From Patescibacteria group bacterium (GTDB lineage: Bacteria > Patescibacteriota > Patescibacteriia > UBA9570): a stretch of DNA of 64,000 nucleotides. A program made the translations under genes and the position numbers. The notes below the pieces were generated by a model. The model was not told where the DNA came from and did not search any database. It worked only from the letters and a program-made list of their open reading frames with translations. The stretch is taken from positions 1,226 to 65,225 of the forward strand of contig JAJRVJ010000009.1 of assembly GCA_024277435.1 (NCBI GenBank). The letters run 5' to 3'. Shown piece after piece: positions 15,942 through 43,397 of this stretch; position 1 is the first letter of the stretch, and every line of letters starts with the position of its first letter.

Positions 15942-16619
15942 ATGCTAGAAAGCCTACAGCCATTATTCTCCACCTACACCTGGATAGATCGCCGTATTTT
16001 GAAACGAGAACTTGCTTCATTTTCTGGAAAAATTCTTGATGTTGGATGTGGCAATAAACGGCTGCAAGAATATTTACCAAGCGATACAGACTATACTGGA
16101 ATAGATTTTAATGCCGCCGCCGATATTCAAATGGATATCAGTAAAGAGCCTTATCCATTTAAAGATAATTCGTTCGACTATATTATATGCAACGCGGTAC
16201 TAGAACATGTGAAAAATGATGATTTTGTATTAAACGAAATTTATCGCGTGCTAAAGCCTGGTGGCACATTATATGTAAGCATTCCATTCATGCAACCATA
16301 TCATGCCGACCCTGATGACTTCCGTCGCTATACTGGCTATGGATTGGAGAACAAACTCAAAGAACATGGCTTTGCTGATATGCGTAGCCTAGAAGCCTAT
16401 GGAACGTTGCTTACTATTGAATATCTTGTATTCGCCGAGGTTGGAAAATATCTTGAGAATAAAAAACGGCTACTCAACCCATTCCGTTGGCTTTATCTCC
16501 TCTTGTTATTGAATGTCTACATTACCAGTAAAATTGCTTCTCTAATCCTTTATCCATTGCAAAAAAACGATTCCTACATTTCGCCCGGATCGAAATGTAT
16601 TTGCAAAAAGCCTGCATAG
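15942..16619 (+). CDS. Class I SAM-dependent methyltransferase (type 11)
   Basis: Motif I ILDVGCGNKRL and motif post-II DNSFDYIICNAVLEHV. Confidence 0.75.
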   Translation: MLESLQPLFSTYTWIDRRILKRELASFSGKILDVGCGNKRLQEYLPSDTDYTGIDFNAAADIQMDISKEPYPFKDNSFDYIICNAVLEHVKNDDFVLNEIYRVLKPGGTLYVSIPFMQPYHADPDDFRRYTGYGLENKLKEHGFADMRSLEAYGTLLTIEYLVFAEVGKYLENKKRLLNPFRWLYLLLLLNVYITSKIASLILYPLQKNDSYISPGSKCICKKPA

Positions 16620-16646
16620 TCAATACATATTGCCTAAAACAAGTAT

Positions 16647-17600
16647 TTGTGTTCAAATACAGTGGTTATGAATATAAAAATCGAGAATCCTGAAATAGCG
16701 GTCATTATACCGTGCTTAAATGAAAAAACTACAATCGCTAAAGTTGTTGGCGATTTTAAAGCTGAACTACCACAAGCAAAAATATATGTGTACGACAATG
16801 GCTCAACCGACAATTCAGTTGAGCTAGCAGAAAACGCTGGAGCAATTGTTCGAGTAGAGCCACATAAGGGTAAAGGAAATGTTGTGCGCCGGATGTTCGA
16901 GGAAATTGAAGCTGACATCTATATTATGATTGATGGTGACGATACATATCCGGCGAAAGAAGTGCATCATCTGTTAAAACCAGTTGTAGAAGAAGGTGTA
17001 GATATGGTTGTGGGTGATCGCTTGGCACATACCGAGAATCATAAAGATAGTATTAGTTGGCTACATCAATTAGGAAACAAATTTTTTCTATTGATGCTTA
17101 ATACATTATTTCGATCAAACTTCAAAGACATTCTCTCTGGGTATCGTGTAATGAATCGCGACTTTGTAAAGAATATTCCATTACTCGCTCAAGAATTTGA
17201 AGTTGAAACAGAAATGACAATTCAAGCATTAGAGCGCCGATACATTGTTGTAGAACGACCAATTCATTATCGATCTAGACCAGACGGCAGTGAATCGAAA
17301 GTAAATACTTTCCGAGACGGTTTCAAAATTCTGTTTACCATTGTGTGGATCTTGCGTGATTATCGACCGATGACATTCTTTAGTATAGTAGCTGGTGGAT
17401 TTCTTGGAACCGGCATGATATTAGGCTCAGTAATTATTCAAGAATTTATTCAAACAGGTGAGGTATTACGCATGCCAACAGCATTATTATCTATTGGCCT
17501 TGTGTTAATTGGTGTATTTGTATGGTTAACTGGATTTATGATAAGCACAATTAACCGACGCTTTAACGAACTCGACACGTTAATGAAAAAACGCCGCTAA
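16647..17600 (+). CDS. GT2 polyprenyl-phosphate glycosyltransferase (GtrB/ArnC/DPM1-like) with C-terminal TM helices
   Basis: IAVIIPCLNE...YVYDNGSTDNS...DGDDTY plus two C-terminal TM segments. The true start is probably the internal Met at about 16668. Confidence 0.8.
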   Translation: MCSNTVVMNIKIENPEIAVIIPCLNEKTTIAKVVGDFKAELPQAKIYVYDNGSTDNSVELAENAGAIVRVEPHKGKGNVVRRMFEEIEADIYIMIDGDDTYPAKEVHHLLKPVVEEGVDMVVGDRLAHTENHKDSISWLHQLGNKFFLLMLNTLFRSNFKDILSGYRVMNRDFVKNIPLLAQEFEVETEMTIQALERRYIVVERPIHYRSRPDGSESKVNTFRDGFKILFTIVWILRDYRPMTFFSIVAGGFLGTGMILGSVIIQEFIQTGEVLRMPTALLSIGLVLIGVFVWLTGFMISTINRRFNELDTLMKKRR

Positions 17601-17614
17601 CCCTAAAGGTACAT

Positions 17615-18727
17615 ATGCGCGTTTGCATCATCACTCCGTTTTTTAACGAATATCCAAATGCCATGGCCAGTGCTGAAAAAATGGCCAAGGCATTATCCGA
17701 GCAACACACCGTAACTGTATATACTAGCCGCACATATAATGCTGCTGCAATAGAACAATTAGATAACGTACACATTGAACGCTTACCTGCCTGGTACATT
17801 CCAGAGCCAGCTAATTATGTGTTTACACGTGGCTTGATTCGTAGACTCTGGAAACACCGTAATGATTTTGATATATTTATTATCAATAAATATATGTGGC
17901 CAGTTGCGTGGTCTACTATATTTCTGAAGCTATTAGGCAAACCGGTGATTTTGGCGACCGATGCGTTTCAAGGTTACGATTGGTGGAGCTGGTCCAAACC
18001 AGTTAATACCATTATGTGGTTGTATGCCAGAACCATCGGCTTAGTTGTTCTAAAACTAGCTGATACAGTTGTGTTATTTCATCAGGGCCTCGTAACACGA
18101 GCCAAAGCATTAACACTTCCCTTTCAAGTAATTCATAATGGCATTCATGCAGAGAATTTTCACAACGCCCAGCCAGCTAAAGATATTCGCGATAATAAAA
18201 ATCAAATAATTATTACCTATATAGGCAGGCTTGATAAAATTAAAGGCTATCTTGATTTCTTAACAGTTGCTAAAAAATTAGCCTCAAGCAATGTGCAGTA
18301 TAAATTTGTGGTAGTAGGCAATACACATAATCGTGAAGAAGTGATGAAACAATATAGTAACAAACAAATTGTATTTACAGGTGTACGCAAAGATATTCCT
18401 GCGGTACTAGCCGTCAGCGATATGTTGATACTACCAACCTATGGTGATGGATTGCCAAATGTAATAATGGAAGCAATGGCTGCCGGACTTCCATGTATTG
18501 GAACAAATATTAATGGCCTACCCTATTTAATTGAAGATTCCGTAACTGGATTTACTATTAGCCCAGGCGATACTAAAGCGTTAGAAGAAAAAATTCAGCG
18601 ATTAGCTAATAATAAAGAGTTGAGAGAACATATGGGGGTAGCTGGCTATAAAAAGATTATGCGAGAATTTAATTGGGAGTATATTGTTAAAGAATACAGC
18701 GAACTATTTGGCAACCTTACGAACTAG
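17615..18727 (+). CDS. GT4 (GT-B fold, group 1) glycosyltransferase
   Basis: C-terminal GDGLPNVIMEAMAAGLPCIGTNINGLPYLIEDSVTGF. Confidence 0.8.
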   Translation: MRVCIITPFFNEYPNAMASAEKMAKALSEQHTVTVYTSRTYNAAAIEQLDNVHIERLPAWYIPEPANYVFTRGLIRRLWKHRNDFDIFIINKYMWPVAWSTIFLKLLGKPVILATDAFQGYDWWSWSKPVNTIMWLYARTIGLVVLKLADTVVLFHQGLVTRAKALTLPFQVIHNGIHAENFHNAQPAKDIRDNKNQIIITYIGRLDKIKGYLDFLTVAKKLASSNVQYKFVVVGNTHNREEVMKQYSNKQIVFTGVRKDIPAVLAVSDMLILPTYGDGLPNVIMEAMAAGLPCIGTNINGLPYLIEDSVTGFTISPGDTKALEEKIQRLANNKELREHMGVAGYKKIMREFNWEYIVKEYSELFGNLTN

Positions 18728-18746
18728 CTGATATACTAGTTCTGGT

Positions 18747-19814
18747 ATGAAAATCATCCATCTTATTACCGGACTCACTGTGGGAGGAGCCGAACAGATG
18801 TTATTGAAAACTGTTCCCTATTTACAGGGCGAACACGTTGTTATTAGTATTATTCCGCAAGCAAAAATTGGTGAGGAATTAGAAGCAGCTGGAGTAGATG
18901 TACGATATTTGAATTTACACTCAATGCTAGACATCCACGCACCTTTTAAGCTCTATAAAATATTACGTACCGAGCAACCCAATATTCTTATTACCTATTT
19001 ATTACACGCCGATATTCTCGGTCGCTTGATTGGAAAACTCGCTCGCGTGCCAAAAATTATTTCCTCCATACGATGTGCTCATAAAGATAAGAAATTCTTT
19101 GTATGGCTATCCAAGCTAACCGCCAACCTTGCTGACCACTACGTGGCAGTATCTCATGAAGTATGCACATGGACACAACAACGCCTCAATGTGCCAGCAG
19201 AAAACATCACTGTAATTCATAATGGAATTCTATTGCCTGAACTAAATAGCGCTAAACCAGTAACTGATGTTCCAAAAGATACCATCACTCTTACATTTAT
19301 AGGAAGATTAGATGCGCAAAAAGGCTTACAATATTTAATACAAGCTGCAGAAATTCTACAATCACACGCTTCGCCATGGACATTACTACTTATTGGTGAT
19401 GGACCTGAGCGAAAAAATATTGAGCAACAAATCAAAGCAAAAAAATTATCTAACGTACGCCTCCTAGGATTCCGGCGTGATGTACCGGCTATTCTGCAGC
19501 AATCTGATATCTTCGTATCACCTACATTATTTGAAGGAATCTCTAACGCCATTATGGAAGCCATGAGTTATTCTCTGTCAGTAGTTACAACCGATATTCC
19601 TGAAAATCGTGAATTGATTGATCATGAAAAGAATGGTATAGTTGTTCCGGTTCGCAGCGGCTCTGCACTAGCCGAAGCCCTGCAATTATTGATGAATAAC
19701 GCAGAAATGCGACATACACTAGGAACGGCAGCACGTAAAACCATCGAATATGATTTTAGTATCGAACATACTCGAGAGCAATTAAATACTCTCTTTAATT
19801 CACACAGCAAATAA
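18747..19814 (+). CDS. GT4 glycosyltransferase
   Basis: MKIIHLITGLTVGGAEQ... N-terminus and an EGISNAIMEAMSYSLSVVTTDIPENRELI C-terminal motif. Confidence 0.8.
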   Translation: MKIIHLITGLTVGGAEQMLLKTVPYLQGEHVVISIIPQAKIGEELEAAGVDVRYLNLHSMLDIHAPFKLYKILRTEQPNILITYLLHADILGRLIGKLARVPKIISSIRCAHKDKKFFVWLSKLTANLADHYVAVSHEVCTWTQQRLNVPAENITVIHNGILLPELNSAKPVTDVPKDTITLTFIGRLDAQKGLQYLIQAAEILQSHASPWTLLLIGDGPERKNIEQQIKAKKLSNVRLLGFRRDVPAILQQSDIFVSPTLFEGISNAIMEAMSYSLSVVTTDIPENRELIDHEKNGIVVPVRSGSALAEALQLLMNNAEMRHTLGTAARKTIEYDFSIEHTREQLNTLFNSHSK

Positions 19815-19820: not shown

Positions 19821-21704
19821 ATGTGCGGAATAGCCGGCAAACTCTATTTTAACCAAGACAGCAATATTCATTCCGATGAATTAGATTTGATGCTTAACGA
19901 AATTAAGCATCGCGGACCTGATGATCAAGGAATTGAAACATTTGGAAATGTAGCGCTTGGTCAACGCCGTCTTTCTATTATTGATCTATCGCCTGCTGGA
20001 CATAATCCAATGAGTAACGCGGATGGCACTGTGTGGATTACCTTTAACGGTGAAATTTTCAATCATACAGATTATCGTCCTGAATTAGAAAAAAAAGGAT
20101 ACAAATTTAAATCCCAAACCGATACCGAAGTTATCTTGTACCTCTATGAAGAATATGGCGAAGAGTGCTTACAATATTTGCGTGGCTTTTTTGCATTTGC
20201 TATTTGGGATGCGCCAAAGAAAAAATTATTTATCGCTCGTGACCGGGTTGGTAAAAAACCATTAAAATATTATCTTACCGATACACAATTATCATTTGCC
20301 TCAGAACTTAAAGCTATCTTGGCCGACCCTTCCGTTCCACGTGAAGTTGATGAAGAAGCCATCCATCATTACTTAACCTTAGAATACGTTCAGCATCCAC
20401 AAACTGGCTTCAAACATATTAAAAAACTACCACCAGCTCACTACATGGTGGTACAAGATGGCAAAGTAGAAATTAAACGTTACTGGAAACTTGATTACAG
20501 CAAGAAGCTTGATTTACCCGAAGAAGAATGGATTGAACGCATTCAAGATAAATTAAGTGAAGCCACAAAATTACGCCTCATGAGTGATGTACCGCTTGGC
20601 GCCTTTCTTAGTGGTGGGGTAGATTCCAGTGCAGTAGTGGCCATAATGGCTAAACATACTACTGGACGCGTAAAAACCTTTACCATTGGCTTCAATGAAG
20701 CCTCGCATGATGAATCAGACTACGCACGAATGATTGCTGAAAAATTCAATACCGAACATACAGAATTTATTGTTGAACCTAAATCTGTTGAACTATTTCC
20801 AAAATTAGCCTGGCAGTACGAAGAGCCATTTGCCGATCCTTCCGCCATTCCCTCATACTATCTTGCGGAATTAACTCGTAAGCACGTAACTGTTGCCCTT
20901 AACGGTGATGGTGGCGATGAAAATTTTGCTGGCTACGGACGGTACGATTATCACTTACTCGGGAAACGCTATGAAAAAATTCCTCGCTGGATCCGACAAG
21001 GTATTATTGCAAATAGCACATCTATTGCAAGTAAACTGATTAAAACTACATTCTTCGATAGAGCTAACCGCTTTGCGCAATCCGTGGCTGATACACCAGA
21101 ACGCCGCTACTACAATTATATTTGTTATTTCACTACCGAACAGAAAAAAGAAATTTACACTGAAGAGTTTTGGAATAAAATGAAGGATAAAGAAACGCAA
21201 GATATTCTCGCAGAACTTGCACAACATGCTGGCAATGATGACTATCTTGACAAAACACTCTATACAGATTTCAACTCGTATCTACCAAATGCGTTAATGG
21301 CAAAAGTAGATATTGCCACTATGGCACATTCACTTGAGGGGCGCTCGCCGTTACTTGATCACGAATTACTTGAACTCTCTGCACAAATTCCTTCCAACTT
21401 AAAAATAAAAAATGGTGAGAAGAAATATATTCTTAAAAAATCTTTAGAGGGTATTCTTCCAAATGAAATTCTATATCGACCTAAAATGGGTTTTGGCGTT
21501 CCGTTAGTACATTGGTTCCGCGATGAACTAAAAGACTACATGTATGATGTGATCATGAATGGTGAAGCCATTAAGCGGGGATATTTAGATAAAAATAAAG
21601 TGCAGAAATTACTTGATACTCATGCAAATACTAAAGTGGATTACGCTAATCACATCTGGGCACTCATTATGTTAGAACACTGGTTTGCCACTTGGTTTAA
21701 ATAG
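19821..21704 (+). CDS. asnB: Asparagine synthetase (glutamine-hydrolysing), WbpS-like amidotransferase in glycan locus
   Basis: N-terminal MCGIAG nucleophile and a PP-loop SGGVDSS. Confidence 0.88.
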   Translation: MCGIAGKLYFNQDSNIHSDELDLMLNEIKHRGPDDQGIETFGNVALGQRRLSIIDLSPAGHNPMSNADGTVWITFNGEIFNHTDYRPELEKKGYKFKSQTDTEVILYLYEEYGEECLQYLRGFFAFAIWDAPKKKLFIARDRVGKKPLKYYLTDTQLSFASELKAILADPSVPREVDEEAIHHYLTLEYVQHPQTGFKHIKKLPPAHYMVVQDGKVEIKRYWKLDYSKKLDLPEEEWIERIQDKLSEATKLRLMSDVPLGAFLSGGVDSSAVVAIMAKHTTGRVKTFTIGFNEASHDESDYARMIAEKFNTEHTEFIVEPKSVELFPKLAWQYEEPFADPSAIPSYYLAELTRKHVTVALNGDGGDENFAGYGRYDYHLLGKRYEKIPRWIRQGIIANSTSIASKLIKTTFFDRANRFAQSVADTPERRYYNYICYFTTEQKKEIYTEEFWNKMKDKETQDILAELAQHAGNDDYLDKTLYTDFNSYLPNALMAKVDIATMAHSLEGRSPLLDHELLELSAQIPSNLKIKNGEKKYILKKSLEGILPNEILYRPKMGFGVPLVHWFRDELKDYMYDVIMNGEAIKRGYLDKNKVQKLLDTHANTKVDYANHIWALIMLEHWFATWFK

Positions 21705-22821
21705 AATCTGTAACTAATTGAAGAAATTGTTCACTCACCACGGTAATATCGTGGTGAGTTTTTGCATACACGTATGCTTTCTTACTCATTACATCTAATT
21801 GCTGCTCATTATTTGAAACCTGCTGAATAACCTGTATTAATTCTTTATCTGTATCAGCAATTAACCCAAAGTTATGCTTTTGAAGAATATCATCAGGATT
21901 CACCCCGCGTGAAATAATTGGCGTACCGTGTTTTGCGGCCTGAATATACGTATTAGGAAATCCTTCCATACTTGATGTATTCACAAATAGCTTAGCCTTA
22001 GCGAAATATTCATCTATATCATTAAGCGGTACGCTCTCTATAAAATCTACATTCGATAATTTCCCGGCACGTTTACACCACTCTTCATATTGTTGCGGAT
22101 AATTACCAGCCGGCATTATCATAATAAACCGTTCATCAGGCAAAGCTTCTGCTGCATCAAGTAGCCGCTCTGGATGTTTCCATGTTTCGCCTCGGCCAAC
22201 CCATAGCACGCCATCACGTTCATTCATTGGTACTATATCTGTAGGAATTTCATAAGCTGTTGATAATAATGGGCCTTTAATACCATAATTATCCTTTAGC
22301 ATTGTTTGCTGATTGTTATTTTGTAAAATAACCAAAGAAGCATTACGCATACCCCATACTCCTAACTTACCAATGAGGCCTCGTTCCCGTTCAAACTGAC
22401 CAGATACATCCCACTCATGAGCCACCATATACACAAACTTCTTTCTGAATACCTTGCAGTATAGCGCTGCAAACCCTGTTTCTGGACCCATAGCGCGCTG
22501 AATATATATATCTGACTGCGATCTATGAAGTTGCCAAAAAAAACGTACTAGGCCAGTAATATGAGAAAAAATAGGAATAGCTCTACTAATACGCAATGTA
22601 CGTCGTAATTCAATATTCTTATACTGCGATACCTCAGATGATTTGCCTGAAGTTAAAAAAACAACTTTCGGTTTTTTATCTTTGCTAATAGTGGTAGCTA
22701 ATTGATACAACTGCACTTCCGCGCCTCCATACGTAACGCCTTCCGATGGAGCAAATAATCCATAAGCGTAATATGCAATAAAGCAAATTGATTGTTGATT
22801 ATCTTTATTGTTTGACATCAA
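21697..22821 (-). CDS. GT4 glycosyltransferase
   Basis: EGFPNTYIQAAKHGTPIIS C-terminal GT-B motif. Converges with asnB, overlapping it by 8 nt. Confidence 0.75.
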   Translation of the reverse strand: MMSNNKDNQQSICFIAYYAYGLFAPSEGVTYGGAEVQLYQLATTISKDKKPKVVFLTSGKSSEVSQYKNIELRRTLRISRAIPIFSHITGLVRFFWQLHRSQSDIYIQRAMGPETGFAALYCKVFRKKFVYMVAHEWDVSGQFERERGLIGKLGVWGMRNASLVILQNNNQQTMLKDNYGIKGPLLSTAYEIPTDIVPMNERDGVLWVGRGETWKHPERLLDAAEALPDERFIMIMPAGNYPQQYEEWCKRAGKLSNVDFIESVPLNDIDEYFAKAKLFVNTSSMEGFPNTYIQAAKHGTPIISRGVNPDDILQKHNFGLIADTDKELIQVIQQVSNNEQQLDVMSKKAYVYAKTHHDITVVSEQFLQLVTDSI

Positions 22822-25162
22822 ATAACTTTGTTAATACTGATCCGTTACGCGCAAATGAATGATTTTTTAACGCATACATGTACGCATTCTCTACATATGT
22901 TACTACGTCTACATCCTTTTCCATAACACGATGCAAAAGATCAATGAGTGTATTCTCATCACCTTGAGCACACCACCCCATCTTATGCGACTGTAATATA
23001 GTATCAGGATCAACATGCAACGAAATAATAGGGCATCGATGTAACGCTGCTTGCACAAACGTATTTGGAAAACCTTCGCTTTTCGAAGTGTTTATAAATA
23101 CTCGAGCTTGCGCAAAATATTGAGATATATCCTGAAAAGGAACATTAGGAATGTATTGCACATTATCCAGCAAATTAACTTTCTTACGAACCTGTGCAAT
23201 TAACTCTTGATCAACAGTTTCGGCCATGATCATAACATACCGATACTGAGGATACTGCTCTGCTAATCGCAAAAATATTTCCGGCTGTTTTACTGCCGCC
23301 GCACGACCCACCCACAATATAGTATCTCGCTCTGATACTTTCGTACCTTCTAATTTCTTTGTAACAAAATATGAAGAATAAATTAAAGTGCTGGAAATAT
23401 TAGGCATCATTATTTGTAATTGTTTATGCTGATCATCACTCTGTGTGATAACTGCATTAGCCTGCTTCATGCCCCAAAATGCAAATTTCGTTAGCAGATC
23501 ACCTTGCCTCCGATACTTCATATCAACTTCACGATCATGAGCGATCATATAAATAAATTGTTTACGCATTATTTTGCAATATAGTGCGATCATACCTGTT
23601 TCTGGACCAATAGAACGCTGTATAAAGGTAGTTGCGCCACTAAGTTGCATGTGATGCCATAAACGTATCATGGCAGCAATATTAGAAACAACGCCGTACT
23701 TGCGTTGCGAAGAAATGGATTTATGTACAACAACACCATCATATTCTTCAATAGTAAATTTCTTAGCGCCCTGAGTAATAACGTGTACAGAATAACCTTG
23801 TTCAAGTAAATATTTAGACCACAAGTATAGCTGCACCTCAGCCCCGCCATATTTTATACCCGCATTTGAATTATATAACCCATATCCATGGTAGCTGACC
23901 ATACATACATCAGAGCGTTGCTTACACTTTTGCAAATAAGTGCTTATTGTTAATCCAGCAGATAACAGTAGTAGTGGATACAAGGGAATACCATAACGCG
24001 GCACTGCATTAAGAGGCATATAAATGACAATATGATACAAAAAAATAACAGAAAAAACTGTATAAAATATTGAAAATTTCTTAAACTGAAATACCCCAAG
24101 CAACGCCAGTGATAAAATAATAACTTGCACTGTAAAAGCTAAAACTAAAGCTATGCTGGCTATAACATTGGATTGTAATGCCCCCATTATTAATAACGTT
24201 TGCATGCCTTCTGGTTGAAATAAGATTTTTAGAGGCTTTTTTGCGTATACCACCGCAACAGCTAAAGGATCTTCCTTGATATTTTGCAAAGTCATTTCAC
24301 GCAACAACGCCTCCTGTTCATCCACAGTAAGTGATTTATCTTTCACTTCAGATAATGGCCATATATGGCCCTGCCAATCCCCGTCCCATGGAACATAACT
24401 TCCTGTCCAATAAATTGCGCCACCACCCTGTCGCCCAAGCACAAATTCGTCAAATTGTATTGCATTACGAATGAACCACGGGCTCACAACAGCCGCAAAG
24501 ACAATGATAAACACACTGCTATGGACAAAAATAGTTTTTATACTACGTGTCCGTCGCTCTACCAGCCAAATGATACCTACCATAAGTAACGGTAAAAATA
24601 AAGCAGCCGACCGAGTTAATGCTAATAATCCTATAGCCATGCCACTAACAATGAACCATCTTACCGTCTTTTTATCTAATGCCAACAAAAAAAGAAAAAT
24701 ACATAGCACCAACAATGCTGCATATAACGTTTCTGTCATTATCTCACCAGAATAGACTATCACCGCAGGAAACATTCCAAATGAAAATGCAGCAATAATA
24801 CCAGATTGATTTGATAAAAATTTCCTACCAATCCAATATATTCCCACACACGTAACTGCCGCTAATAAAGCCTGAACAATTTGCGGACCAATAATCGAAT
24901 GTCCAAACATTGCATAAAGCGGCGCTAATATAAATAATGAATACCCTGGTTCACGTTCTGCGCTAGGGATGCCTGAGGTAACTGATAAGCCATCCCCCTG
25001 CACAACATTCCAGGCCATAGCGTCAAAAATACTGGAATCATTCCAGTGCAAAGGCGCTATACCTAAAGCAATATATGACAAATGTATCACTGCAATCACT
25101 ACAAAAATTGCAAGCGAGACATATCGTGGCGGCATTGTCGTAAATACTTTTTTTAGATTCAT
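22805..25162 (-). CDS. Fusion protein: N-terminal GT-C (ArnT/PMT-like, GT39/83) membrane glycosyltransferase + C-terminal GT4 domain
   Basis: The N-terminal 400 aa are a paralog of the next two genes (REPGY...FGHS, GEIMTE, YVPWDGDWQGHIWPL). The C-terminus carries ...GGAEVQLY... and EGFPNTFVQAALHRCPIIS like the 21697 GT4. Confidence 0.75.
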   Translation of the reverse strand: MNLKKVFTTMPPRYVSLAIFVVIAVIHLSYIALGIAPLHWNDSSIFDAMAWNVVQGDGLSVTSGIPSAEREPGYSLFILAPLYAMFGHSIIGPQIVQALLAAVTCVGIYWIGRKFLSNQSGIIAAFSFGMFPAVIVYSGEIMTETLYAALLVLCIFLFLLALDKKTVRWFIVSGMAIGLLALTRSAALFLPLLMVGIIWLVERRTRSIKTIFVHSSVFIIVFAAVVSPWFIRNAIQFDEFVLGRQGGGAIYWTGSYVPWDGDWQGHIWPLSEVKDKSLTVDEQEALLREMTLQNIKEDPLAVAVVYAKKPLKILFQPEGMQTLLIMGALQSNVIASIALVLAFTVQVIILSLALLGVFQFKKFSIFYTVFSVIFLYHIVIYMPLNAVPRYGIPLYPLLLLSAGLTISTYLQKCKQRSDVCMVSYHGYGLYNSNAGIKYGGAEVQLYLWSKYLLEQGYSVHVITQGAKKFTIEEYDGVVVHKSISSQRKYGVVSNIAAMIRLWHHMQLSGATTFIQRSIGPETGMIALYCKIMRKQFIYMIAHDREVDMKYRRQGDLLTKFAFWGMKQANAVITQSDDQHKQLQIMMPNISSTLIYSSYFVTKKLEGTKVSERDTILWVGRAAAVKQPEIFLRLAEQYPQYRYVMIMAETVDQELIAQVRKKVNLLDNVQYIPNVPFQDISQYFAQARVFINTSKSEGFPNTFVQAALHRCPIISLHVDPDTILQSHKMGWCAQGDENTLIDLLHRVMEKDVDVVTYVENAYMYALKNHSFARNGSVLTKLFDVKQ

Positions 25163-28325: not shown

Positions 28326-28329
28326 GATA

Positions 28330-35408: not shown

Positions 35409-35660
35409 ATGAAACGCTCTCACGCTAAAATTCATATTCCCGACTGGCTACGATATATACTTCTCGCCGCTATTCTTATAGTAACCATAACAACTATTAT
35501 CAGCGCCGCCCTTCCAGATCATTTTACCATACTAGGTGACCCGTATCATCACAGCCTAAACTACGCTCCATCACGTGCCTTATGGCCATGGCTTGGAACC
35601 TGGCTCACTATTCTTATAAGTATCGTGTACGGCATATATGTACGCCACACTAAGCGCTAA
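35409..35660 (+). CDS. Small 2-TM membrane protein, hypothetical
   Basis: 83-aa ORF with two hydrophobic helices. Confidence 0.35.
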   Translation: MKRSHAKIHIPDWLRYILLAAILIVTITTIISAALPDHFTILGDPYHHSLNYAPSRALWPWLGTWLTILISIVYGIYVRHTKR

Positions 35661-36001: not shown

Positions 36002-36808
36002 ATGAAAAAATACATTACTAATTCTGTCGGATATACAATTGTAGCGCTGCTTGGTTTAGCTCCAATACTACTGTTACTAGCTATATATTCACCATATCCC
36101 GGAATTATCTACATGCGACAAACATTTCGACCAAGCCCTGCTGCACAAAAGCTAGGTGTAAGTAATTTTTTTCCAGACTCCTCGTTATCTCCCGGAATAA
36201 ACCCAATTGAAAATTACCAAATACGTACCATTAATGATGCGGTTGACTTCACCGTAAAAAAAATACCCCGCACCACTTCTGCGGTAATGTACATTAATAT
36301 GAAGCAAAATGCAGCCGCTAGCGCATTACTGCACATAAGCGACACTGGTGGAGATGTCTCATATCGACTACTTGGAGCTGATGATTTTATTTCAAGTCTA
36401 CTAAAAAATGAAGACTATACGTACATTCAAGACCCTGAAACAGATATTACACTCTTCCAAAAAAAGACAAGTGCGTATTCTAGTATAAAAGAATTTATGA
36501 GTAATCCGCCGCGTAGTACCATTGGCCTTTACTATCCCCCATCGGATCAGCTAGACTCTTTTATTGAAAAAATACATACCACGCCACTTCACGCGAAAAA
36601 AAATAAACTAGCAAACGGTAATATCACTCTACCTAACTATATCATTACTTCCTGGCAAAATATCAACAATGATGAATTTGTTGAATATGAATTAAACTGG
36701 AATATGAACGCCCTTGCCATTGAACGGCAAGATTACTTTGCGTTTCGATTACGACCAAGTAGTGAGTATCCCATTACTATCAAACCAATTATCGTAGGAA
36801 TGCAATGA
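36002..36808 (+). CDS. N-terminally anchored hypothetical protein
   Basis: One N-terminal TM segment. Its stop overlaps the next gene's start as ATGA. Confidence 0.5.
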   Translation: MKKYITNSVGYTIVALLGLAPILLLLAIYSPYPGIIYMRQTFRPSPAAQKLGVSNFFPDSSLSPGINPIENYQIRTINDAVDFTVKKIPRTTSAVMYINMKQNAAASALLHISDTGGDVSYRLLGADDFISSLLKNEDYTYIQDPETDITLFQKKTSAYSSIKEFMSNPPRSTIGLYYPPSDQLDSFIEKIHTTPLHAKKNKLANGNITLPNYIITSWQNINNDEFVEYELNWNMNALAIERQDYFAFRLRPSSEYPITIKPIIVGMQ

Positions 36809-38733
36809 ATATGCTAAAAATATTGAAAGACTGGATAATCGAAATAATGCGCATAATGTTCATCCCGCTAATTATAGCGTATCTATTATTAGTAGTTACT
36901 GATGGAGTTAACCAAGATATTATTAGTCCATTTATTATTATTTCCGACTTTTCTATCCCACTTATATTCGTAGCGATAGGGTACGGTGCGCATATGTATG
37001 CAAATAAAAAGGTAAAAACCGCACTTTCAAAAAAAGCTCAGTGGACTATCCACACTAGCATCGCATCGATAATTGCCATTATCACATGGATCGCATTACA
37101 AGATTCATTGATCCTCTACAAAATAATATGTGCTCTGATCATAATGGTTGGATCACTATCTGCATACATTGCACAAAATAAATCACAAAAACGTTGGGCT
37201 ATTATTTCCATAGTTACTGTGTGTATTTTAGCTACCGCGTTGATAATTTCTTTCATTGCACAATACGAAATAGGTTTTATATCATTTGATTTTTGGAATC
37301 ACTATAACTCTAGTAAGGTCTATTCACTTACTGGAGTAGTTGGGTCATTACTATTATCGTATCAATCTTTTTATGTACTAATTGGTAGCATTCTCAATTT
37401 AACAAATACAAGCATTGCAAACGCACAAATTGTGTACACACTAAGTGTAGCTATGGTATATCTTCTTGGTGCATATAGTATGTACTATATAGGTTGTAAC
37501 CTAGGTAGTCGTCGCTATGGAATCATTAGCGCCATTATCTTCGCTTTATTTCCAATGACCACCTGGGGTGGGGCGGGATTCTTTATTCCTAATACCCTCT
37601 CTCTTATTGTATGGCCTCTACTGTTCTACTTTGGAATGCAAAAAAGGAGCAAACGTTCCATATTTCTATTCATATTAAGCGGCTTAGTTATCTTCTTATA
37701 TCATCCTTGGGATTTAGGAATTATTTTACCAGCGTTTATTATCTGGAAAGTATTCTTACAAAAACATGTTAAAGGTTTTATTTTGTGGTTTATAGTTTTT
37801 TCTGTGGGCTTTATAAGCACAGAAATTATACTGTTTATATTTGCTCCTGATTTATTCTTTTCACTACATGATTGGCTACCAAATTTTTATGGAATTTACA
37901 ATAACATAATCAGCACCATAAATACTCAATCTAGCTTCAATCCTCAGGTATTGTTTACACTAAAAAATATTTTCATTACACCTCTAGCAATAATTGGATC
38001 ATTATTTGTAATCATACGGTACATCCAAGAGCGCAATACAGGTAAATTACAGCCTATCACAAAATTCTTACTTGCTCATGTAATATTACTATATCTACTG
38101 CTATTTCTTGGATTTATTTTCGCATATAATTTTCGCATTGTTGTATTTGTCTTATTTGTCTGTGTACCGCTAGCCGCATACATGCTTCATCAATTATCAC
38201 GCCGTCATATAATAACTGGCTCTATGATCTTAGGCCTATCATTTAGTGCCCTACTATTACACAACGTAAATGTATATACAATATTAAATGGCTCAACCTA
38301 TAGTTCTCAATCGGAAAGTCAAAACATATATGCAGGACTCAAACAGATTGATCAAGAGGCTATTATACTTACCGACCCATACAGCCGTACATTTCTTATA
38401 GCGCTTGGAGCTCGCTATCGCATCCATACTAATCCTGATGAAGAAAATGAATACTATCAGATTTTTCATGAGCAAGATTGGACAGAGTCTCAGATTAAAT
38501 ATATTCAAACATGGGATATTAAATATATTGCTATTACAAATCGTACCGTAGAATGGGCACGAACCGGTAAGCCAACAACTGCTGTAACCAACTACTTATC
38601 AAGAATTGATAGCTTTATTTCCACAAAAGAAACCCTGACAGATAAACTATCAGGCGATCTCAAAGCTATTTATAAGAGTGATGAATTTTCACTCTACCAG
38701 ATTCCGGAAGATCCGGCTGCGCTACTGTATTAA
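36805..38733 (+). CDS. Large polytopic membrane protein (>12 TM) with C-terminal extracytoplasmic domain; putative GT-C-like glycosyltransferase/polymerase
   Basis: 642-aa paralog of the 33816 gene. No confident family assignment. Confidence 0.55.
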   Translation: MNMLKILKDWIIEIMRIMFIPLIIAYLLLVVTDGVNQDIISPFIIISDFSIPLIFVAIGYGAHMYANKKVKTALSKKAQWTIHTSIASIIAIITWIALQDSLILYKIICALIIMVGSLSAYIAQNKSQKRWAIISIVTVCILATALIISFIAQYEIGFISFDFWNHYNSSKVYSLTGVVGSLLLSYQSFYVLIGSILNLTNTSIANAQIVYTLSVAMVYLLGAYSMYYIGCNLGSRRYGIISAIIFALFPMTTWGGAGFFIPNTLSLIVWPLLFYFGMQKRSKRSIFLFILSGLVIFLYHPWDLGIILPAFIIWKVFLQKHVKGFILWFIVFSVGFISTEIILFIFAPDLFFSLHDWLPNFYGIYNNIISTINTQSSFNPQVLFTLKNIFITPLAIIGSLFVIIRYIQERNTGKLQPITKFLLAHVILLYLLLFLGFIFAYNFRIVVFVLFVCVPLAAYMLHQLSRRHIITGSMILGLSFSALLLHNVNVYTILNGSTYSSQSESQNIYAGLKQIDQEAIILTDPYSRTFLIALGARYRIHTNPDEENEYYQIFHEQDWTESQIKYIQTWDIKYIAITNRTVEWARTGKPTTAVTNYLSRIDSFISTKETLTDKLSGDLKAIYKSDEFSLYQIPEDPAALLY

Positions 38734-40680
38734 ACGAGTAAGTTCCTCGTGAAGAATTTTGGAAACCCGTTCTATGGAATGATGTTTTCTAAAATATTGA
38801 CTTCCATTATCTCCAGCTTCTTGCAATTGTCGCGGATTACTTAAAATATCGTCAAGCAATGCACGTAATGTTTCAAAAGAATTTTGAGCTACCCATCCTA
38901 ATGCATGCTCTGTAATAATATTATCGGGATTTGCTGATAGACTCATAATAGGAGTGCCGTGCAATCCCGCTTGAATAAATGTATTTGGAAACCCCTCCAC
39001 TCGCGATGTATTCACAAATAGTTTAGCCTTACTAAAATATTCCCCAATTACATCAAAATCAACTTGATCATGAAATGTTACATTACTTAGCGCATTTACC
39101 TCTTGCTGTACGGAAGTAAATAGCACTTCATCACCTTTATTACAAATCATCACAAATTGCTCATCAGGAAATGCTTCAGCCAACCTTAAGAATACCATTG
39201 GTTGCTTCATTTCATGTGCGCGACCAACCCATAAAATACTATCTTTGATAGCACCCAATTCATCCTTACGCAATAAAAAGCCATTTGGTAAAAGCGTAAC
39301 ATGCGCCCCCATTTTTTCTAATAGAGATTGATGATTAGAATTTTGAGCAAAAAATTCTGTGGTATTATGCAACCCATACCTGTACGACTTACTCGCCAAC
39401 CAACTTGCACTATCGATAAATTCACCATTCACATCTATATCTGATGCTGTCATGTATACACCCCGCTTACGCGCCATTTTACAAAACCATGCTACAAGCC
39501 CAACTTCAAATGATGCAGAACGCGAAATATAAATATCTGCATTTATACGCTGGAAATCCAATAGCAATTTTAGCGTCCTCCAAAAACCAACAAATATGTT
39601 TGTGGATGCAGTATTGCGTACTTGCCAATATGTAATGTCGTTTTCACACACTAGCTTGGGTATGTCTTGAATCGCAGATACAACATGAATATCATATCCG
39701 TCACCATAACTACGACGTAACTCCTCCACTAACTGAAATAATTGAACCTCACTACCTCCAAAAACGCCTCCTCCTGGGTGGGAAACATTATACATATCAT
39801 AATTCACAATACATATACGTGTTTTTTCAGGTGGCGTTTTTTTAAACTCTAAAGCAATATCCATACCCTGATACTCCATGCCGAACATTACAAGAAAACG
39901 ATATATAATTCGCTTTATCGCTCTTGGTAATAAAGTGGTAACTATACTTAATCTGCCGCTCATCTCACGTTGCCATTCAACTGAAAAAAACTTTCCACCA
40001 TATTTTCGAGAAACTGCGCGAGATTCCTTCCAGAACTGATCGGCTCTACCTCCAGTTTTTGATTCTTCATGAATACGGAAGTGTCCTAATACCACAGGCA
40101 ATAACTCAATAGTCGTTTCTAATCCTATGCGAATATAGTAATCCTTATCCATCGAAAAATGTAATGACTCATCAAAATATCCAACACTGTCTAGTAATTC
40201 TCTTCGCCAAAAAACTGTGATATACGCCATAAACATCGTCTCATTCAATAATGCATCAAGAGAAAATTCCTGTGTTGGTAATAGATATTCTTCAGCCTGA
40301 CCATTCGTAGTGTTATATGCTAGGCACTTACCATACACCATACCCACCTCGGAATGTTCTTTAAAATGTTTGACGACAGCTTGAAATGCACCAGGCTCAA
40401 ACCAATCATCGGTACTTAGCCATACTACGATATCACCAGTAGCTTTACGTAAACCCTTATTCAAGGCATCGGACTGCCCTGTATCTGATTCAGAAATAAA
40501 TTTCACCTTATCCGGATACTTCTCCTGATACGCCTCTAGAATTTCAATGCTGTTGTCCGTGGATTCACCGTCATAAATAATATGCTCCCAATCTGCATGG
40601 CTTTGCTGCGTAACGCTATCAATAGCCTGCTGCAAATATTGCCCCTGGTTAAACGATGGAGTAACTACTGAAATTTTCAT
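38722..40680 (-). CDS. Bifunctional glycosyltransferase: N-terminal GT2 + C-terminal GT4 domains
   Basis: N-terminus ISVVTPSFNQGQYL...YDGESTDNS...LSTDDW. C-terminus GGSEVQLFQL... and EGFPNTFIQAGLHGTPIMS. Confidence 0.75.
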   Translation of the reverse strand: MKISVVTPSFNQGQYLQQAIDSVTQQSHADWEHIIYDGESTDNSIEILEAYQEKYPDKVKFISESDTGQSDALNKGLRKATGDIVVWLSTDDWFEPGAFQAVVKHFKEHSEVGMVYGKCLAYNTTNGQAEEYLLPTQEFSLDALLNETMFMAYITVFWRRELLDSVGYFDESLHFSMDKDYYIRIGLETTIELLPVVLGHFRIHEESKTGGRADQFWKESRAVSRKYGGKFFSVEWQREMSGRLSIVTTLLPRAIKRIIYRFLVMFGMEYQGMDIALEFKKTPPEKTRICIVNYDMYNVSHPGGGVFGGSEVQLFQLVEELRRSYGDGYDIHVVSAIQDIPKLVCENDITYWQVRNTASTNIFVGFWRTLKLLLDFQRINADIYISRSASFEVGLVAWFCKMARKRGVYMTASDIDVNGEFIDSASWLASKSYRYGLHNTTEFFAQNSNHQSLLEKMGAHVTLLPNGFLLRKDELGAIKDSILWVGRAHEMKQPMVFLRLAEAFPDEQFVMICNKGDEVLFTSVQQEVNALSNVTFHDQVDFDVIGEYFSKAKLFVNTSRVEGFPNTFIQAGLHGTPIMSLSANPDNIITEHALGWVAQNSFETLRALLDDILSNPRQLQEAGDNGSQYFRKHHSIERVSKILHEELTRLIQ

Positions 40681-42200
40681 ACCTTTGAACGTGAAGGAAT
40701 AATCTTACTAATATATGACGTGAACAACATCCGATCTTTTTTTGAAAAGATACCAATAACCAATCCAAGTAGAAGTATAAATACTCCAGCTAATAATAAT
40801 GCTAGCAAAACACCCCAAATAGATGATAACAACGATACACTATATCCCAATACAAAATATCCAACGCTCCCGATAATTAATAGCTTTACATAGATCATAA
40901 ACATCGATGTGTGCTGAACGCGTAACTTTCGCTCAATCATATATATATATATTGGTACAGGCCACTGAGCTATGAGTAATCCATACGCAGCGCCTTCAAT
41001 ATTAAATATTGGGATAAGAGTTGCTGTTAACGCTATATTAGAAATAACAATAGTGGCAATTACAGCAGCATTGGTCTTGGGTTTATCAAAACCAGCGAAA
41101 AAATAAAATGGAATTGCCGTAAGTGCATACAAACCATAACACACAACCAAAACCTGCATAATATACGCCGACTCAATAATATATGCATCACCCAACCAGT
41201 AACCAATAAATGGCTCTGCGTATACGATAAGTGGAATAACCATAGCCAATATAAACGTATAGGTAAATTTAGAAGCGCGTATATACAATTCCCGCAGTGC
41301 ATCTAGTCTCTGCTGTGTAAATAGTTCTGTTGATAGCGGAAATAATACATTATTGAGCGTTGCAATAAGTGCATGAATTTTCATAGCAATGGTCACTGGA
41401 ATTGCATAAAATGTTACAACAGTTGATCCTAAAAATGCGCTAATTAAAAATTTATCAAATTGAAATAACATATTACCAGCTATTGTTGCAATAAACGTAA
41501 AGCCCGCAAAATTCATTATTTTTTTCACAAGTCGCTTGTCCCAAGCAAGAACAAATGTGAAGTCAGGTAGTAATCGCTTTAATAAAATAATGTATCCAAT
41601 CAATAATGTAAGAGATGTAGCAGCGTTTACTAATAAAATAGCCAACAAACTTGGATGCAACCATAAAATGAACACAAGCACCGCCGTAAGGGCCATTGCG
41701 TTTATCAATACAACTATTGTATTAAGATGATATTTTTGCAAAGCTCGTGGAACCGCGCTCAATACACCATTGGCTAAATTAAAAAGTAAACTACCCACAG
41801 CCAACAGTAAACCGATTTTACTCACGTCACGTAGCTCTTCTGGAATCTTCAGTAAAGTAATGATAGAATCAGCGCCTAGCATCACAACAACGAATAACAC
41901 CACACCTAAACCAAGAAAGATGATGAGATTCGTACTAATAACTTTATTAACCTGTCTTGTGTCACCACGCGTATATGCTTCTGAAATATACCGTACAGAA
42001 GCTGATGCTAATCCAAGATCCAGAAACGATAATATGCCAATAACCGATAATAGCAGTGTATACACACCATATTGATCATCACCTAATGCACTCAATATAA
42101 ATGGAGTGATAGCAAAAGCTATCACAATAGACCAGCTAAACGCTAGTACATTACTCAGTGCATTAGTGATGGTTTGATGGGCCTTTTTCATAACAAACAT
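40677..42200 (-). CDS. Wzx-like MOP-superfamily polysaccharide flippase
   Basis: About 12-14 TM segments and a PST-family pattern. I chose the start at the Met preceding KKAHQTITNALSNVL; the ORF extends to 42272. Confidence 0.7.
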   Translation of the reverse strand: MFVMKKAHQTITNALSNVLAFSWSIVIAFAITPFILSALGDDQYGVYTLLLSVIGILSFLDLGLASASVRYISEAYTRGDTRQVNKVISTNLIIFLGLGVVLFVVVMLGADSIITLLKIPEELRDVSKIGLLLAVGSLLFNLANGVLSAVPRALQKYHLNTIVVLINAMALTAVLVFILWLHPSLLAILLVNAATSLTLLIGYIILLKRLLPDFTFVLAWDKRLVKKIMNFAGFTFIATIAGNMLFQFDKFLISAFLGSTVVTFYAIPVTIAMKIHALIATLNNVLFPLSTELFTQQRLDALRELYIRASKFTYTFILAMVIPLIVYAEPFIGYWLGDAYIIESAYIMQVLVVCYGLYALTAIPFYFFAGFDKPKTNAAVIATIVISNIALTATLIPIFNIEGAAYGLLIAQWPVPIYIYMIERKLRVQHTSMFMIYVKLLIIGSVGYFVLGYSVSLLSSIWGVLLALLLAGVFILLLGLVIGIFSKKDRMLFTSYISKIIPSRSKV

Positions 42201-42266
42201 AGTGAGTGTAGCGGCAATATACACTACAGTCAACGTACATATAAAGCTATGTGCTATACTGGGACT

Positions 42267-43397
42267 ATGCAATATTTAGCTATCCTTGGCAACGTACCAG
42301 AACTATCAGCCCTCGAGCTCAATCGCATGGGCATTACCGCTGAATGGCGAGGAGGTAGCGTAGCGGAATTATCCAACAAAATCGATATTAATCAGCTTGG
42401 TGGCACTGTTAAAATTGCTGAATATATAACTACTATTAAGCGCGATCTTGAAGGCTTAAAAGAACTATACGCACTCTTAGAGCAAGCCAGTGGGGATGGA
42501 AAAAAATTATGCTTTGGATTTAGCGTATATGCAGCCGATGCTGCAGTTACAGAAAAAGTGGAGAAACACTATAATAAAAAATTACGTGCTATTGGCATCG
42601 ATTGGAAAAAAAAGTTGAAAGAAGTGCATAATGGAGCAGTTCGTTATGTTGAAAGCAAAGAACCTGCTCTCTCTTCGGTAATTGTACAAAAAGAAAAATT
42701 ACTCAACCATAATACAGATTTCATCATTGCAATTCGTAAAAAAGAAATCATCCTGGGCCGCACTATAGAAGTACAAGATTATAAAGGTTTTTCTAAAAGA
42801 GACTTTGGTCGACCAGCGCGTGATCACCAATCTGGTATGTTACCACCAAAAGTAGCCCGTATGATGATGAATATCGCCCAACCAACCGGCGCAGGTTCAT
42901 TCGTTGATGCCTTTTGTGGATCGGGCACCGTGTTACAAGAAGCAACATTGCAAGGCCATAAAAATATCATTGGTGTTGATATCTCGAAGAAAGCCATTAC
43001 TGATACTAAAGAGAATTTCGAATGGATGAAACTGCCAGTACCAGAGCTCCATGTGGCTGATAGTCAAAAAATAAATGGGTTACTACCAAAGAATTCTGTG
43101 GAGTGTGTGGTAGGAGAAGGCTATCTTGGACCAACACGTCCTAAAAAAACCGAAAAGGTGCGTAGACAACTTATTAAACTCTACGATAATACAATTACCG
43201 CATTTAATGATATTTTAATTCCGGGCGGAAGAATTGTGTTAGCTGTTCCAGCATGGAAACGTTACGACGATATACTTACATTACCAATCAATGAAACCTT
43301 ACAGCGCTTGGGGATGAAGGAATTTCACGAACCGATTTTCTATGGCCGCGAACACGCACACGTATTGCGACACATTCACTTCTTAGAAAAGAAATAA
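42267..43397 (+). CDS. Putative RNA methyltransferase (N2-G/N6-A class, THUMP-like N-terminal domain)
   Basis: MTase motif I FVDAFCGSGTVLQEA. The internal Met at 42267 avoids the overlap with the Wzx-like gene; the ORF track starts it at 42174. Confidence 0.55.
   Translation: MQYLAILGNVPELSALELNRMGITAEWRGGSVAELSNKIDINQLGGTVKIAEYITTIKRDLEGLKELYALLEQASGDGKKLCFGFSVYAADAAVTEKVEKHYNKKLRAIGIDWKKKLKEVHNGAVRYVESKEPALSSVIVQKEKLLNHNTDFIIAIRKKEIILGRTIEVQDYKGFSKRDFGRPARDHQSGMLPPKVARMMMNIAQPTGAGSFVDAFCGSGTVLQEATLQGHKNIIGVDISKKAITDTKENFEWMKLPVPELHVADSQKINGLLPKNSVECVVGEGYLGPTRPKKTEKVRRQLIKLYDNTITAFNDILIPGGRIVLAVPAWKRYDDILTLPINETLQRLGMKEFHEPIFYGREHAHVLRHIHFLEKK

Follow-up and report, generated by a model that had tools for sequence, protein, structure and literature searches.

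A predicted cell-surface glycosylation island with cytoplasmic and extracytoplasmic arms in a Kerfeldbacteria-like Patescibacteria bacterium

A 64,000-nucleotide stretch of contig JAJRVJ010000009.1 (assembly GCA_024277435.1, Patescibacteria group bacterium), referred to below as the window, contains a contiguous block of glycan genes at 15942-42272, as seen from the listing of open reading frames (ORFs) and from Pfam and NCBIfam scans. We suggest, with a probability of about 0.7, that this locus is a cell-surface glycosylation island with a cytoplasmic and an extracytoplasmic arm in a Kerfeldbacteria-like bacterium of the Candidate Phyla Radiation (CPR). In the cytoplasmic arm, three free GT4 glycosyltransferases, two fused GT4 domains and one ordinary GT2 would assemble a polyprenyl-linked oligosaccharide. 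Its modifications would come from a methyltransferase, an amidotransferase of the AsnB type and a GalE/TviC-like epimerase, and a Wzx-like flippase of the multidrug/oligosaccharidyl-lipid/polysaccharide (MOP) superfamily would export the lipid-linked product. In the extracytoplasmic arm, GDP-mannose 4,6-dehydratase (GMD), a ColD-type 3-dehydratase and an Fcl/ColC-like reductase would make a GDP-3,6-dideoxyhexose from GDP-mannose, GDP-L-colitose being the simplest candidate, and one or both of two GT2s resembling AglJ, ArnC and dolichyl-phosphate-mannose synthase (DPMS) would charge polyprenyl monophosphate with sugars. A 118-aa EamA protein would then flip the charged lipid, and five GT-C glycosyltransferases, three of a PMT_2 clade and two of a small lineage-restricted clade, would hand the sugars over to acceptors on the outer side of the membrane. 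We infer, for each GT2, the sugar that it loads, and for the locus as a whole the acceptor and the direction of flow.

The locus comprises four transcription blocks on alternating strands, namely A (+, 15942-21704), B (-, 33806-21697), C (+, 33816-38733) and D (-, 42272-38722), and its GC content of 0.35-0.39 is the same as that of the flanks. The bounds proposed in an earlier note on this DNA coincide exactly with ORF boundaries: the first methyltransferase begins with its ATG at the left bound, and the Wzx-like gene, read from its longest possible TTG start, sets the right one. The same note counted 25 consecutive genes, where the ORF count gives 23; apart from this number, its list of gene types was borne out, as judged with hidden Markov model (HMM) scans and, for the two polytopic proteins, with the comparisons below. 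The Pfam scan of the window covered non-nested ORFs of at least 150 aa, two short nested ORFs being left out, and reported matches at E≤0.001. For comparison, syntenic loci were obtained from Logan assemblies (L001/L002, L016 and partly L003), from the metagenome-assembled genomes (MAGs) GCA_016182495.1, titled Ca. Kerfeldbacteria, and GCA_040960315.1, and from eight GTDB representatives, of which four carry the title Ca. Kerfeldbacteria; all of these loci are referred to by L numbers.

The two unannotated polytopic proteins of block C are distant paralogs at the profile level and, on the modeled fold, both belong to the GT-C class, which brings the number of GT-C proteins in the locus to five. 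The first (33816..35399, +), a GT-C-fold glycosyltransferase of a small Kerfeldbacteria-type family, is listed as an ORF of 445 aa in a gene of ~527 codons: an in-frame TAA lies at 35151-35153, and the 81 codons past it remain open and align with the C-termini of homologs, and the stop may reflect a nonsense mutation or read-through, or else a mistake in the assembly or consensus. The second (36805..38733, +) has 642 aa, with ~150 extra N-terminal residues relative to the 527-aa protein. Neither the 445-aa nor the 642-aa protein matched any Pfam family even at E≤10, and neither of the two families matched PDB sequences in a profile search. The earlier note had described the pair as paralogs, which is borne out at the profile level and not by BLAST, where the two do not match each other. 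A comparison of the 642-aa family with a 2-sequence alignment of the 527-aa family by hhalign gave a probability of 0.6%, and this was overturned with an alignment of 56 sequences (98.3%, E 2e-14, 430 columns). Thin-profile hhalign comparisons with the PMT_2 paralogs reached 70-79%, and the 642-aa protein also showed a weak BLAST match to the PMT_2 region of the fusion gene at 22805 (E 8e-4).

The fold assignment came from an AlphaFold2 model of P0031, a 518-aa homolog of the first protein, with a predicted local distance difference test score (pLDDT) of 67 and a predicted template modeling score (pTM) of 0.66. The top 23 Foldseek matches of this model in the PDB were all GT-C proteins (DPY19, STT3, AftA, ArnT, ALG9, AglB, PglB, AftD and Pmt4), whereas a model of the 642-aa family built from 3 sequences reached a pLDDT of 41 and was not used. 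Moreover, D36 in the motif 'SPDSAG', located in the first extracytoplasmic loop, is nearly invariant among the 56 family members and lines up with the Asp that is conserved in loop 1 of the PMT_2 paralogs and with 'FDFWNH' of the 642-aa family. A Wzy reading of the two proteins was also considered, and was rejected on the GT-C fold. Both families are rare: only two relatives of the 642-aa protein and four of the 445-aa protein, one of them named Candidatus Kerfeldbacteria, were detected among 5.8 billion clusters, and a full HMM search for the 445-aa family in 1.84 billion representatives returned just 65 relatives, whose distant members carry PMT_2, PTPS_related, DUF6541 or STT3 domains. The locus thus holds two small GT-C clades that have no Pfam model. 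The one line of evidence that supports the use of polyprenyl-phosphate-linked donors by the 527-aa and 642-aa enzymes is their gene neighborhood, which includes DPMS-like GT2s.

Three smaller genes lie between these two. The gene for an 83-aa protein with two transmembrane (TM) segments (35409..35660, +; 46% identical in L001) always follows the 527-aa GT-C gene, both in the window and in L001, L004, L006 and L016, the last three of which carry counterparts of 75-92 aa directly 3' of it, and its product is a possible small subunit of that enzyme. On the opposite strand, a four-TM ORF of 110 aa (35657..35989, -) has no Pfam family and is probably a real gene, judging from a counterpart at the same place and strand in L001 (43% identity over 69 aa) and a 93-aa gene there in L016. 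It is followed by a gene for a 268-aa protein with an N-terminal membrane anchor and no Pfam match (36002..36808, +; a 283-aa homolog in L001 is 35% identical, and L016 has a 282-aa gene).

The other three GT-C proteins belong to block B and are of the PMT_2 type. Two of them, of 412 and 426 aa (25165..27655, the second from 26375, -; Pfam PMT_2 52 and 37 bits), are short and lack a large C-terminal soluble domain. The third forms the N-terminal membrane domain (PMT_2 51 bits, residues 75-229) of a fusion with a C-terminal GT4 (Glyco_trans_1_4 and Glycos_transf_1, residues 608-750) encoded at 22805..25162 (-). The three paralogs share 34-46% identity by BLAST, and their family profile weakly matches AglB (3waj, E 1e-4). 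The ORF of the fusion is 785 aa long (776 aa in the database gene call P0004); a single other full-length GT-C/GT4 fusion, P0005 (39% identical), was found in the 5.8e9 clusters searched, and none in the genome-contig collection. Hence, where the earlier note had recognized three GT-C paralogs, the three of PMT_2 type are indeed present and the two polytopic proteins of block C raise the total to five. Because these two are also GT-C enzymes, the logic of polyprenyl-phosphate sugars is firmer than that note could know.

The block that encodes these enzymes also carries a nucleotide-sugar pathway. Three contiguous genes at 28330..31497 (-), 78-85% identical in L001, encode GMD, a ColD-like protein and an Fcl/ColC-like protein. 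The first (30505-31497, -) exceeds the equivalog cutoff of TIGR01472 (536 bits versus 415). The second (29320-30495, -), a pyridoxamine-phosphate-dependent 3-dehydratase, matches E. coli ColD (2gms) at E 9e-55 and is closest to ColD and to CDP-sugar E1 dehydratases; its 'GHH' aligns with the 'SHH' of ColD, so that His188 is kept where aminotransferases carry Lys, and the register is fixed by the H188N mutant entry 3b8x. A perosamine-synthase reading of this DegT-like gene was therefore rejected, as its nearest relatives are ColD and the E1 dehydratases and it has His, not Lys. The third (28330-29316, -), an epimerase-reductase of the short-chain dehydrogenase/reductase (SDR) family, has GDP-L-fucose synthase (Fcl) as its top match at 222 bits, below the cutoff of 500; the ColC step was judged against this model, the libraries holding no ColC-specific one. 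This agrees with the GDP-3,6-dideoxyhexose pathway claimed in the earlier note, and the trio supports a product of the colitose type, in which the third step is the presumptive one. ManC is absent from the window, and no colitosyltransferase was recognizable in it.

The full order of operon B, SDR-EamA-TIM-GMD-ColD-ColC-GT2-GT-C-GT-C-GT-C/GT4-GT4, is made up of overlapping or abutting genes, and the run from EamA to the GT-C genes is also found in L001/L002 and L016. The soluble DPMS-like GT2 of this operon (27621..28394, -; Pfam Glycos_transf_2 69 bits) matches the AglJ model at E 6.5e-27 and the Pyrococcus furiosus DPMS 5mlz at E 3.7e-12, is 82% identical in L001, and overlaps the start of the first GT-C gene downstream; the pairing of a GT2 with a GT-C recurs in L003, L011 and L016. 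A candidate flippase for polyprenyl-phosphate sugars is the 118-aa EamA half-transporter of the drug/metabolite transporter superfamily (32491..32847, -; Pfam EamA 37.7 bits), whose top NCBIfam models, ArnF (43.7 bits, cutoff 99) and ArnE (35.6 bits, cutoff 92), both fall short of their cutoffs. DPMS-type enzymes use GDP-linked donors. Because of this preference, the tight order GMD-ColD-ColC-GT2-GT-C and the overlap of the GT2 and GT-C genes, we suggest that the GDP-dideoxyhexose may be loaded onto polyprenyl phosphate. The operon begins with a GalE/TviC-like SDR nucleotide-sugar epimerase (32850..33806, -; Pfam Epimerase 211 bits; GalE 180 and TviC 140 bits in NCBIfam, both below cutoff), which is 64-70% identical in L001, L004, L006 and L014, and it includes a xylose-isomerase-like TIM barrel of unassigned role (31487..32479, -; Pfam AP_endonuc_2 42.5 bits), kept only in L001, L006 and L016 and co-occurring in relatives with ColD and EamA. 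It ends with a stand-alone GT4 (21697..22821, -; Pfam Glycos_transf_1 65.8 bits) of a subfamily that we call GT4-X. The longest-ORF TTG start of the soluble GT2, at 28394, overlaps 28330-29316 by 65 nt, and that of the Wzx-like gene, at 42272, overlaps the gene at 42174-43397 by 99 nt; in both cases the true starts are probably internal ATGs, as the homologs are 20-26 aa shorter (237 aa for those of the GT2).

The second GT2 of this kind is in block A (16647..17600, +; Pfam Glycos_transf_2), and has two C-terminal TM segments. Its top NCBIfam model is AglJ (TIGR04182; 230 bits versus a cutoff of 325, E 3e-68, model positions 1-280 of 293), and in the PDB it matches the P. furiosus Dol-P-Man synthase 5mlz (E 9e-11) and three ArnC structures, including 9hwj (E 8e-8). 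The operon opens with a methyltransferase dependent on S-adenosylmethionine (15942..16619, +; 225 aa, Methyltransf_11 66.9 bits), with one C-terminal hydrophobic segment and a 71% identical homolog in L002. Next to the GT2 are two tandem GT4s of the GT-B fold, of 370 and 355 aa (17615..19814, the second from 18747, +; Glycos_transf_1 113 and 125 bits), which share 32% identity by BLAST and whose top NCBIfam model, an stp2/XrtA-system glycosyltransferase, is below cutoff. Finally, an AsnB-type glutamine amidotransferase (19821..21704, +; Asn_synthase 355 bits and GATase_7) scored 663 bits with the XrtA/PEP-CTERM amidotransferase model (cutoff 817) and 508 bits with asn_synth_AEB. It is 70-81% identical in L002 and L004, and probably amidates a uronic-acid sugar.

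Block D supplies the exporter, a Wzx-like lipid-linked oligosaccharide flippase of the MOP superfamily by family (40677..42272, -; Polysacc_synt 78 bits against a cutoff of 28.2, Polysacc_synt_3 and MatE), with a 59% identical homolog of 505 aa in L001. It also encodes an ordinary Leloir GT2 (Glycos_transf_2 105 bits, residues 4-164) fused to a GT4-X domain (Glycos_transf_1 47.6 bits, residues 481-627) at 38722..40680 (-), which corresponds to an unfused GT2 of 282 aa in L001. The GT4-X domains at 21697 and at the C-termini of 22805 and 38722 share 32-36% identity (36% between 21697 and 22805, 34% between 21697 and 38722). With the three free GT4s and the GT4 halves of the two fusion genes, the five GT4 domains, two of them in fusions, that the earlier note had listed are all accounted for.

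A Wzx-like flippase together with five cytoplasmic GT4 domains and an ordinary GT2 implies a lipid-linked oligosaccharide, and therefore some primer. As the earlier note had observed, the locus contains no recognizable initiating phosphoglycosyltransferase, Wzy or Wzz: no Pfam match to PF00953 (WecA/MraY), PF02397 (WbaP/PglC), Wzy_C, EpsG, Wzz or LCP was found among the scanned ORFs of the window, nor to O-ag_pol_Wzy among the window proteins, those proteins that matched no family gave none at E≤10 either, and PF00953 and PF02397 are missing from the gene tables of L001/L002, L004, L006 and L016 in the parts seen, where Wzy and Wzz were not found either. It is conceivable, though on balance we doubt it, that this is an ordinary Wzx-dependent polysaccharide locus (capsule, exopolysaccharide (EPS) or secondary wall polymer) whose primer, polymerase and attachment enzyme are encoded elsewhere, and whose GT-Cs add side branches in a Gtr-like manner. 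The flippase and the six cytoplasmic glycosyltransferase domains would fit such a locus, the AsnB and GT4 genes best match families of EPS loci (XrtA/PEP-CTERM), and the visible part of the genome is limited to 64 kb. Moreover, O-antigen clusters of E. coli normally lack wecA and wzz, and priming genes often lie outside clusters of this kind, so that a missing primer is weak evidence. However, the absences extend over the window and over what is visible of four syntenic relatives, LCP included, and five GT-Cs with two DPMS-like GT2s far exceed the needs of side branching. The non-canonical pathway argued for in the earlier note is thus supported in part: lipid-phosphate-sugar machinery dominates the locus and an O-antigen is unlikely, whereas the missing primer is not decisive. 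For the cytoplasmic arm of the island we propose, a phosphoglycosyltransferase encoded elsewhere in the genome is the more likely primer, the other candidate being the AglJ-like GT2 acting on polyprenyl monophosphate.

This second candidate leads to a reading of the locus as a bacterial counterpart of the Agl system of Haloferax volcanii, to which we give a low probability. In that archaeon, the GT2 AglJ primes dolichyl monophosphate, further glycosyltransferases extend the chain, modifications are introduced by a methyltransferase, a dehydrogenase and an isomerase, and AglR of the Polysacc_synt type and the PMT-like GT-C AglS handle Dol-P-Man (PMC3871713); the pathway runs without a phosphoglycosyltransferase and with the same list of parts (PMC3871713). 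Here, the AglJ-like GT2 would prime, GT4 and GT2 enzymes would extend, methylation and amidation would follow, and the MOP flippase would export the glycan, after which the 527-aa or 642-aa GT-C would transfer it en bloc to protein and the PMT_2-type GT-Cs would add final sugars in an AglS-like way. AglJ being the top NCBIfam model for the GT2 at 16647 fits this scheme, as do the grouping of this gene in one operon with two GT4s, a methyltransferase and an amidotransferase, and the position of the 518-aa GT-C gene of L006 directly 3' of Wzx. However, the AglJ score is below cutoff, the STT3 model of Pfam matched none of the window proteins (it did match 1 of the 56 members of the 527-aa family, a distant one), and on reading the window proteins no canonical WWDXG motif was noticed, the loose W-x-D strings 'PWYDH' and 'HPWDL' being all that was seen. 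In addition, the 518-aa GT-C of L009-L015 is paired with a small DPMS-like GT2 with no homolog of the window's Wzx detected in these loci, and a monosaccharide donor therefore fits better than en-bloc transfer. A combined version, in which the AglJ-like GT2 primes without a phosphoglycosyltransferase, the 527/642-aa clade and its 75-92-aa partner form a protein transferase, and polyprenyl-phosphate-colitose serves as the donor of the PMT_2-type GT-Cs, is likewise improbable as a whole.

Comparative synteny, which the earlier note had proposed as a check, places the island at a conserved insertion site with varying content. In each locus that extends that far, it adjoins a UPF0020 methyltransferase, followed by YchF and SHMT where the sequence continues. 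A central block that runs from the GT-C genes to the gene of 637-642 aa is common to L001/L002 and L016 in the same order as in the window. L004 lacks the ColD, EamA, TIM-barrel and PMT_2-type GT-C genes, and L009-L015 retain a minimal core with GMD, an Fcl-like gene, a GT2 and a GT4 on one side and the small DPMS-like GT2, an SDR, the 518-aa GT-C, another SDR and a methyltransferase on the other. The sugar-nucleotide enzymes are 78-85% identical to those of relatives, as housekeeping genes are, whereas the GT-Cs, Wzx and the 642-aa protein are 33-59% identical. It could be asked whether this is one system at all, or a hypervariable island in which independent glycan modules accumulated between conserved housekeeping flanks: an EPS-like operon A, an operon B for colitose and a GT2/GT-C pair, an operon C with the new GT-Cs, and an operon D with Wzx and the GT2-GT4 fusion. 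The four alternating-strand blocks, the genes missing from L004 and the small core of L009-L015 at the same site, and the variation of fusions between genomes are what such accumulation would produce. We consider it unlikely, however, as the order of the central block is preserved across three genomes whose proteins are just ~40-85% identical, and GT4-X paralogs are fused both to a GT-C and to a GT2, which suggests functional coupling across blocks.

Several points weigh against the two-armed island that we favor. Literature searches found no precedent for a polyprenyl-phosphate-colitose donor, and searches that combined CPR with GT-C or polyprenyl terms found nothing relevant; GDP-colitose could instead be used directly by a GT4 or GT2 enzyme. 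The EamA protein and both GT2s score below the NCBIfam cutoffs for ArnE/F, AglJ and ArnC, so that their predicted substrates are guesses, and the functions of all proteins of the locus and of their close relatives rest on sequence and fold. The fold of the new GT-Cs was assigned from a moderate-confidence model (pLDDT 67) of a homolog and not of the window protein itself, and because of the in-frame stop one component, the 527-aa GT-C, may be inactive. Finally, each arm may be a module of its own, the two being no more than neighbors.

The genes around the locus point to a Candidatus Kerfeldbacteria-like member of the CPR (Patescibacteria) as the host, an uncultured and ultra-small bacterium of the groundwater type. 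Identities to Kerfeldbacteria-type MAGs in the flanks are 68-78% for YchF, 80-86% for SHMT and 71-74% for the ELP3-like protein, and the flanks further encode EF-P, S6, MetK, a Mur ligase and TrpRS of bacterial type. An archaeal origin, considered in view of ELP3, TrmB and the AglJ match, was rejected on EF-P, S6, the bacterial MetK and the Mur ligase. For the CPR, no lipid A or lipopolysaccharide (LPS) genes have been reported and the envelope is uncharacterized (PMC5220378). An O-antigen is therefore unlikely here, and glycosylation probably targets a wall polymer or a protein of the surface or S-layer.

Among the closest known systems are Arn and Gtr (GtrB/GtrA/GtrC) of Gram-negative bacteria, in which a GT2 loads polyprenyl phosphate, a small flippase with four TM segments moves it, and a GT-C transfers the sugar outside the membrane. 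This logic, called Arn-like transfer in the earlier note, does dominate the locus, although the equivalogs of ArnC (NCBIfam model 29 bits against a cutoff of 529), ArnE/F and ArnT were not reached, the ArnA and ArnB models gave weak generic SDR or DegT matches only, and there is no deformylase (ArnD). In addition, lipid A is unlikely in this host, there are five GT-Cs rather than one, and the adjacent sugar pathway is GDP-linked, of the colitose type, rather than UDP-Ara4N or UDP-Glc; the locus would function like Arn without being a member of it. With the Agl cluster of H. volcanii (AglJ, G, I, E, P, M and Q; AglD/AglR/AglS; AglB) it has in common a methyltransferase, sugar-modifying enzymes, a flippase of the Polysacc_synt family and GT-Cs, and AglJ is the top NCBIfam model of its GT2 at 16647. 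However, the host is bacterial, no STT3/AglB is recognizable by sequence, the AglJ match is below cutoff, and N-glycosylation of protein would be hypothetical. In E. coli O55/O111 and Yersinia pseudotuberculosis, GDP-L-colitose is made by Gmd, ColD and ColC, to which the contiguous GMD, ColD-like and Fcl/ColC-like genes of the locus correspond; here they occur in a CPR host, outside an O-antigen cluster and immediately upstream of DPMS-like GT2 and GT-C genes. Monoderm systems that glycosylate proteins, lipoglycans or teichoic acids outside the membrane with polyprenyl-phosphate sugars and GT-Cs, namely actinobacterial Ppm1/PMT and PimE/Emb/Aft, CsbB-GtcA-YfhO of Firmicutes and Pgf of Streptococcus mutans, have the PMT_2 family in common with the locus. 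Yet it shows no close sequence relationship to them, the PgfS match reaching just E 1e-7, has no GtrA/GtcA-family protein, and draws two of its GT-Cs from a clade with 65 detectable members. Taken together, the locus combines known types of module in an unusual way, with five GT-Cs, a GT-C-GT4 fusion, and a colitose-type pathway beside a DPMS-like GT2/GT-C pair.

Some further features of the window and of the related loci were also recorded. Just past the AsnB stop, a perfect 12-bp hairpin stem closed by a 3-nt loop, with TTTTT after it (21733-21759, +), lies inside the last codons of the minus-strand GT4, where operons A and B converge, and could be a terminator common to both; a promoter and terminator scan gave a signal at or below background, and an Rfam scan of the window found no RNA family. 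In L011 (15845-18454, -), a GT87-family (PimE-type) GT-C stands beside a GNAT protein and another DPMS-like GT2, and the same locus carries two more polytopic proteins that lack annotation, of 621 and 659 aa; in the Kerfeldbacteria-type lineage, GT2 and GT-C genes appear to be paired repeatedly. A conserved single-TM protein of 480-560 aa without a Pfam family lies between the UPF0020 methyltransferase and YchF in relatives (L004 17203-18681, L006 12993-14660, and also L009, L010 and L012); in the window this protein is missing, and the methyltransferase and YchF are direct neighbors. The MAGs of L010, L013 and L015 are titled 'uncultured Gammaproteobacteria bacterium' and carry the 518-aa GT-C, with the UPF0020 methyltransferase in L010 and L013; they are probably mislabeled, as their gene order is that of Kerfeldbacteria-titled MAGs. 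An ELP3-like radical-SAM and GNAT protein (46887-48497, -) has ELP3_N and Radical_SAM_C domains and is 71-74% identical in L006/L008 and L012; Elp3 homologs are not known to be common in bacteria. The 'giant surface protein' of the earlier note is a 1529-aa protein (59293-63882, -) with ten bacterial TSP3 repeats, a purple-acid-phosphatase N-terminal-like domain and a weak fn3 match, 17 kb from the locus with housekeeping genes between. Ribosomal protein S6 (6504-7154, -) has a C-terminal extension of ~100 aa (216 aa in total; 211 aa in L002), and a 465-aa protein (50912-52309, +) contains a sub-threshold bactofilin domain.

CPR bacteria are thought to live attached to hosts, and their surface glycans are therefore prime candidates for roles in host recognition and phage defense. 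Like an O-antigen locus, the island described here occupies a constant place in the genome and is conserved while its content varies. Its defined list of parts (five GT-Cs, two DPMS-like GT2s and a colitose-type pathway) could be used for heterologous expression as a route to CPR surface display. If priming does take place on polyprenyl monophosphate, an archaeal-style route of glycosylation would extend to bacteria.

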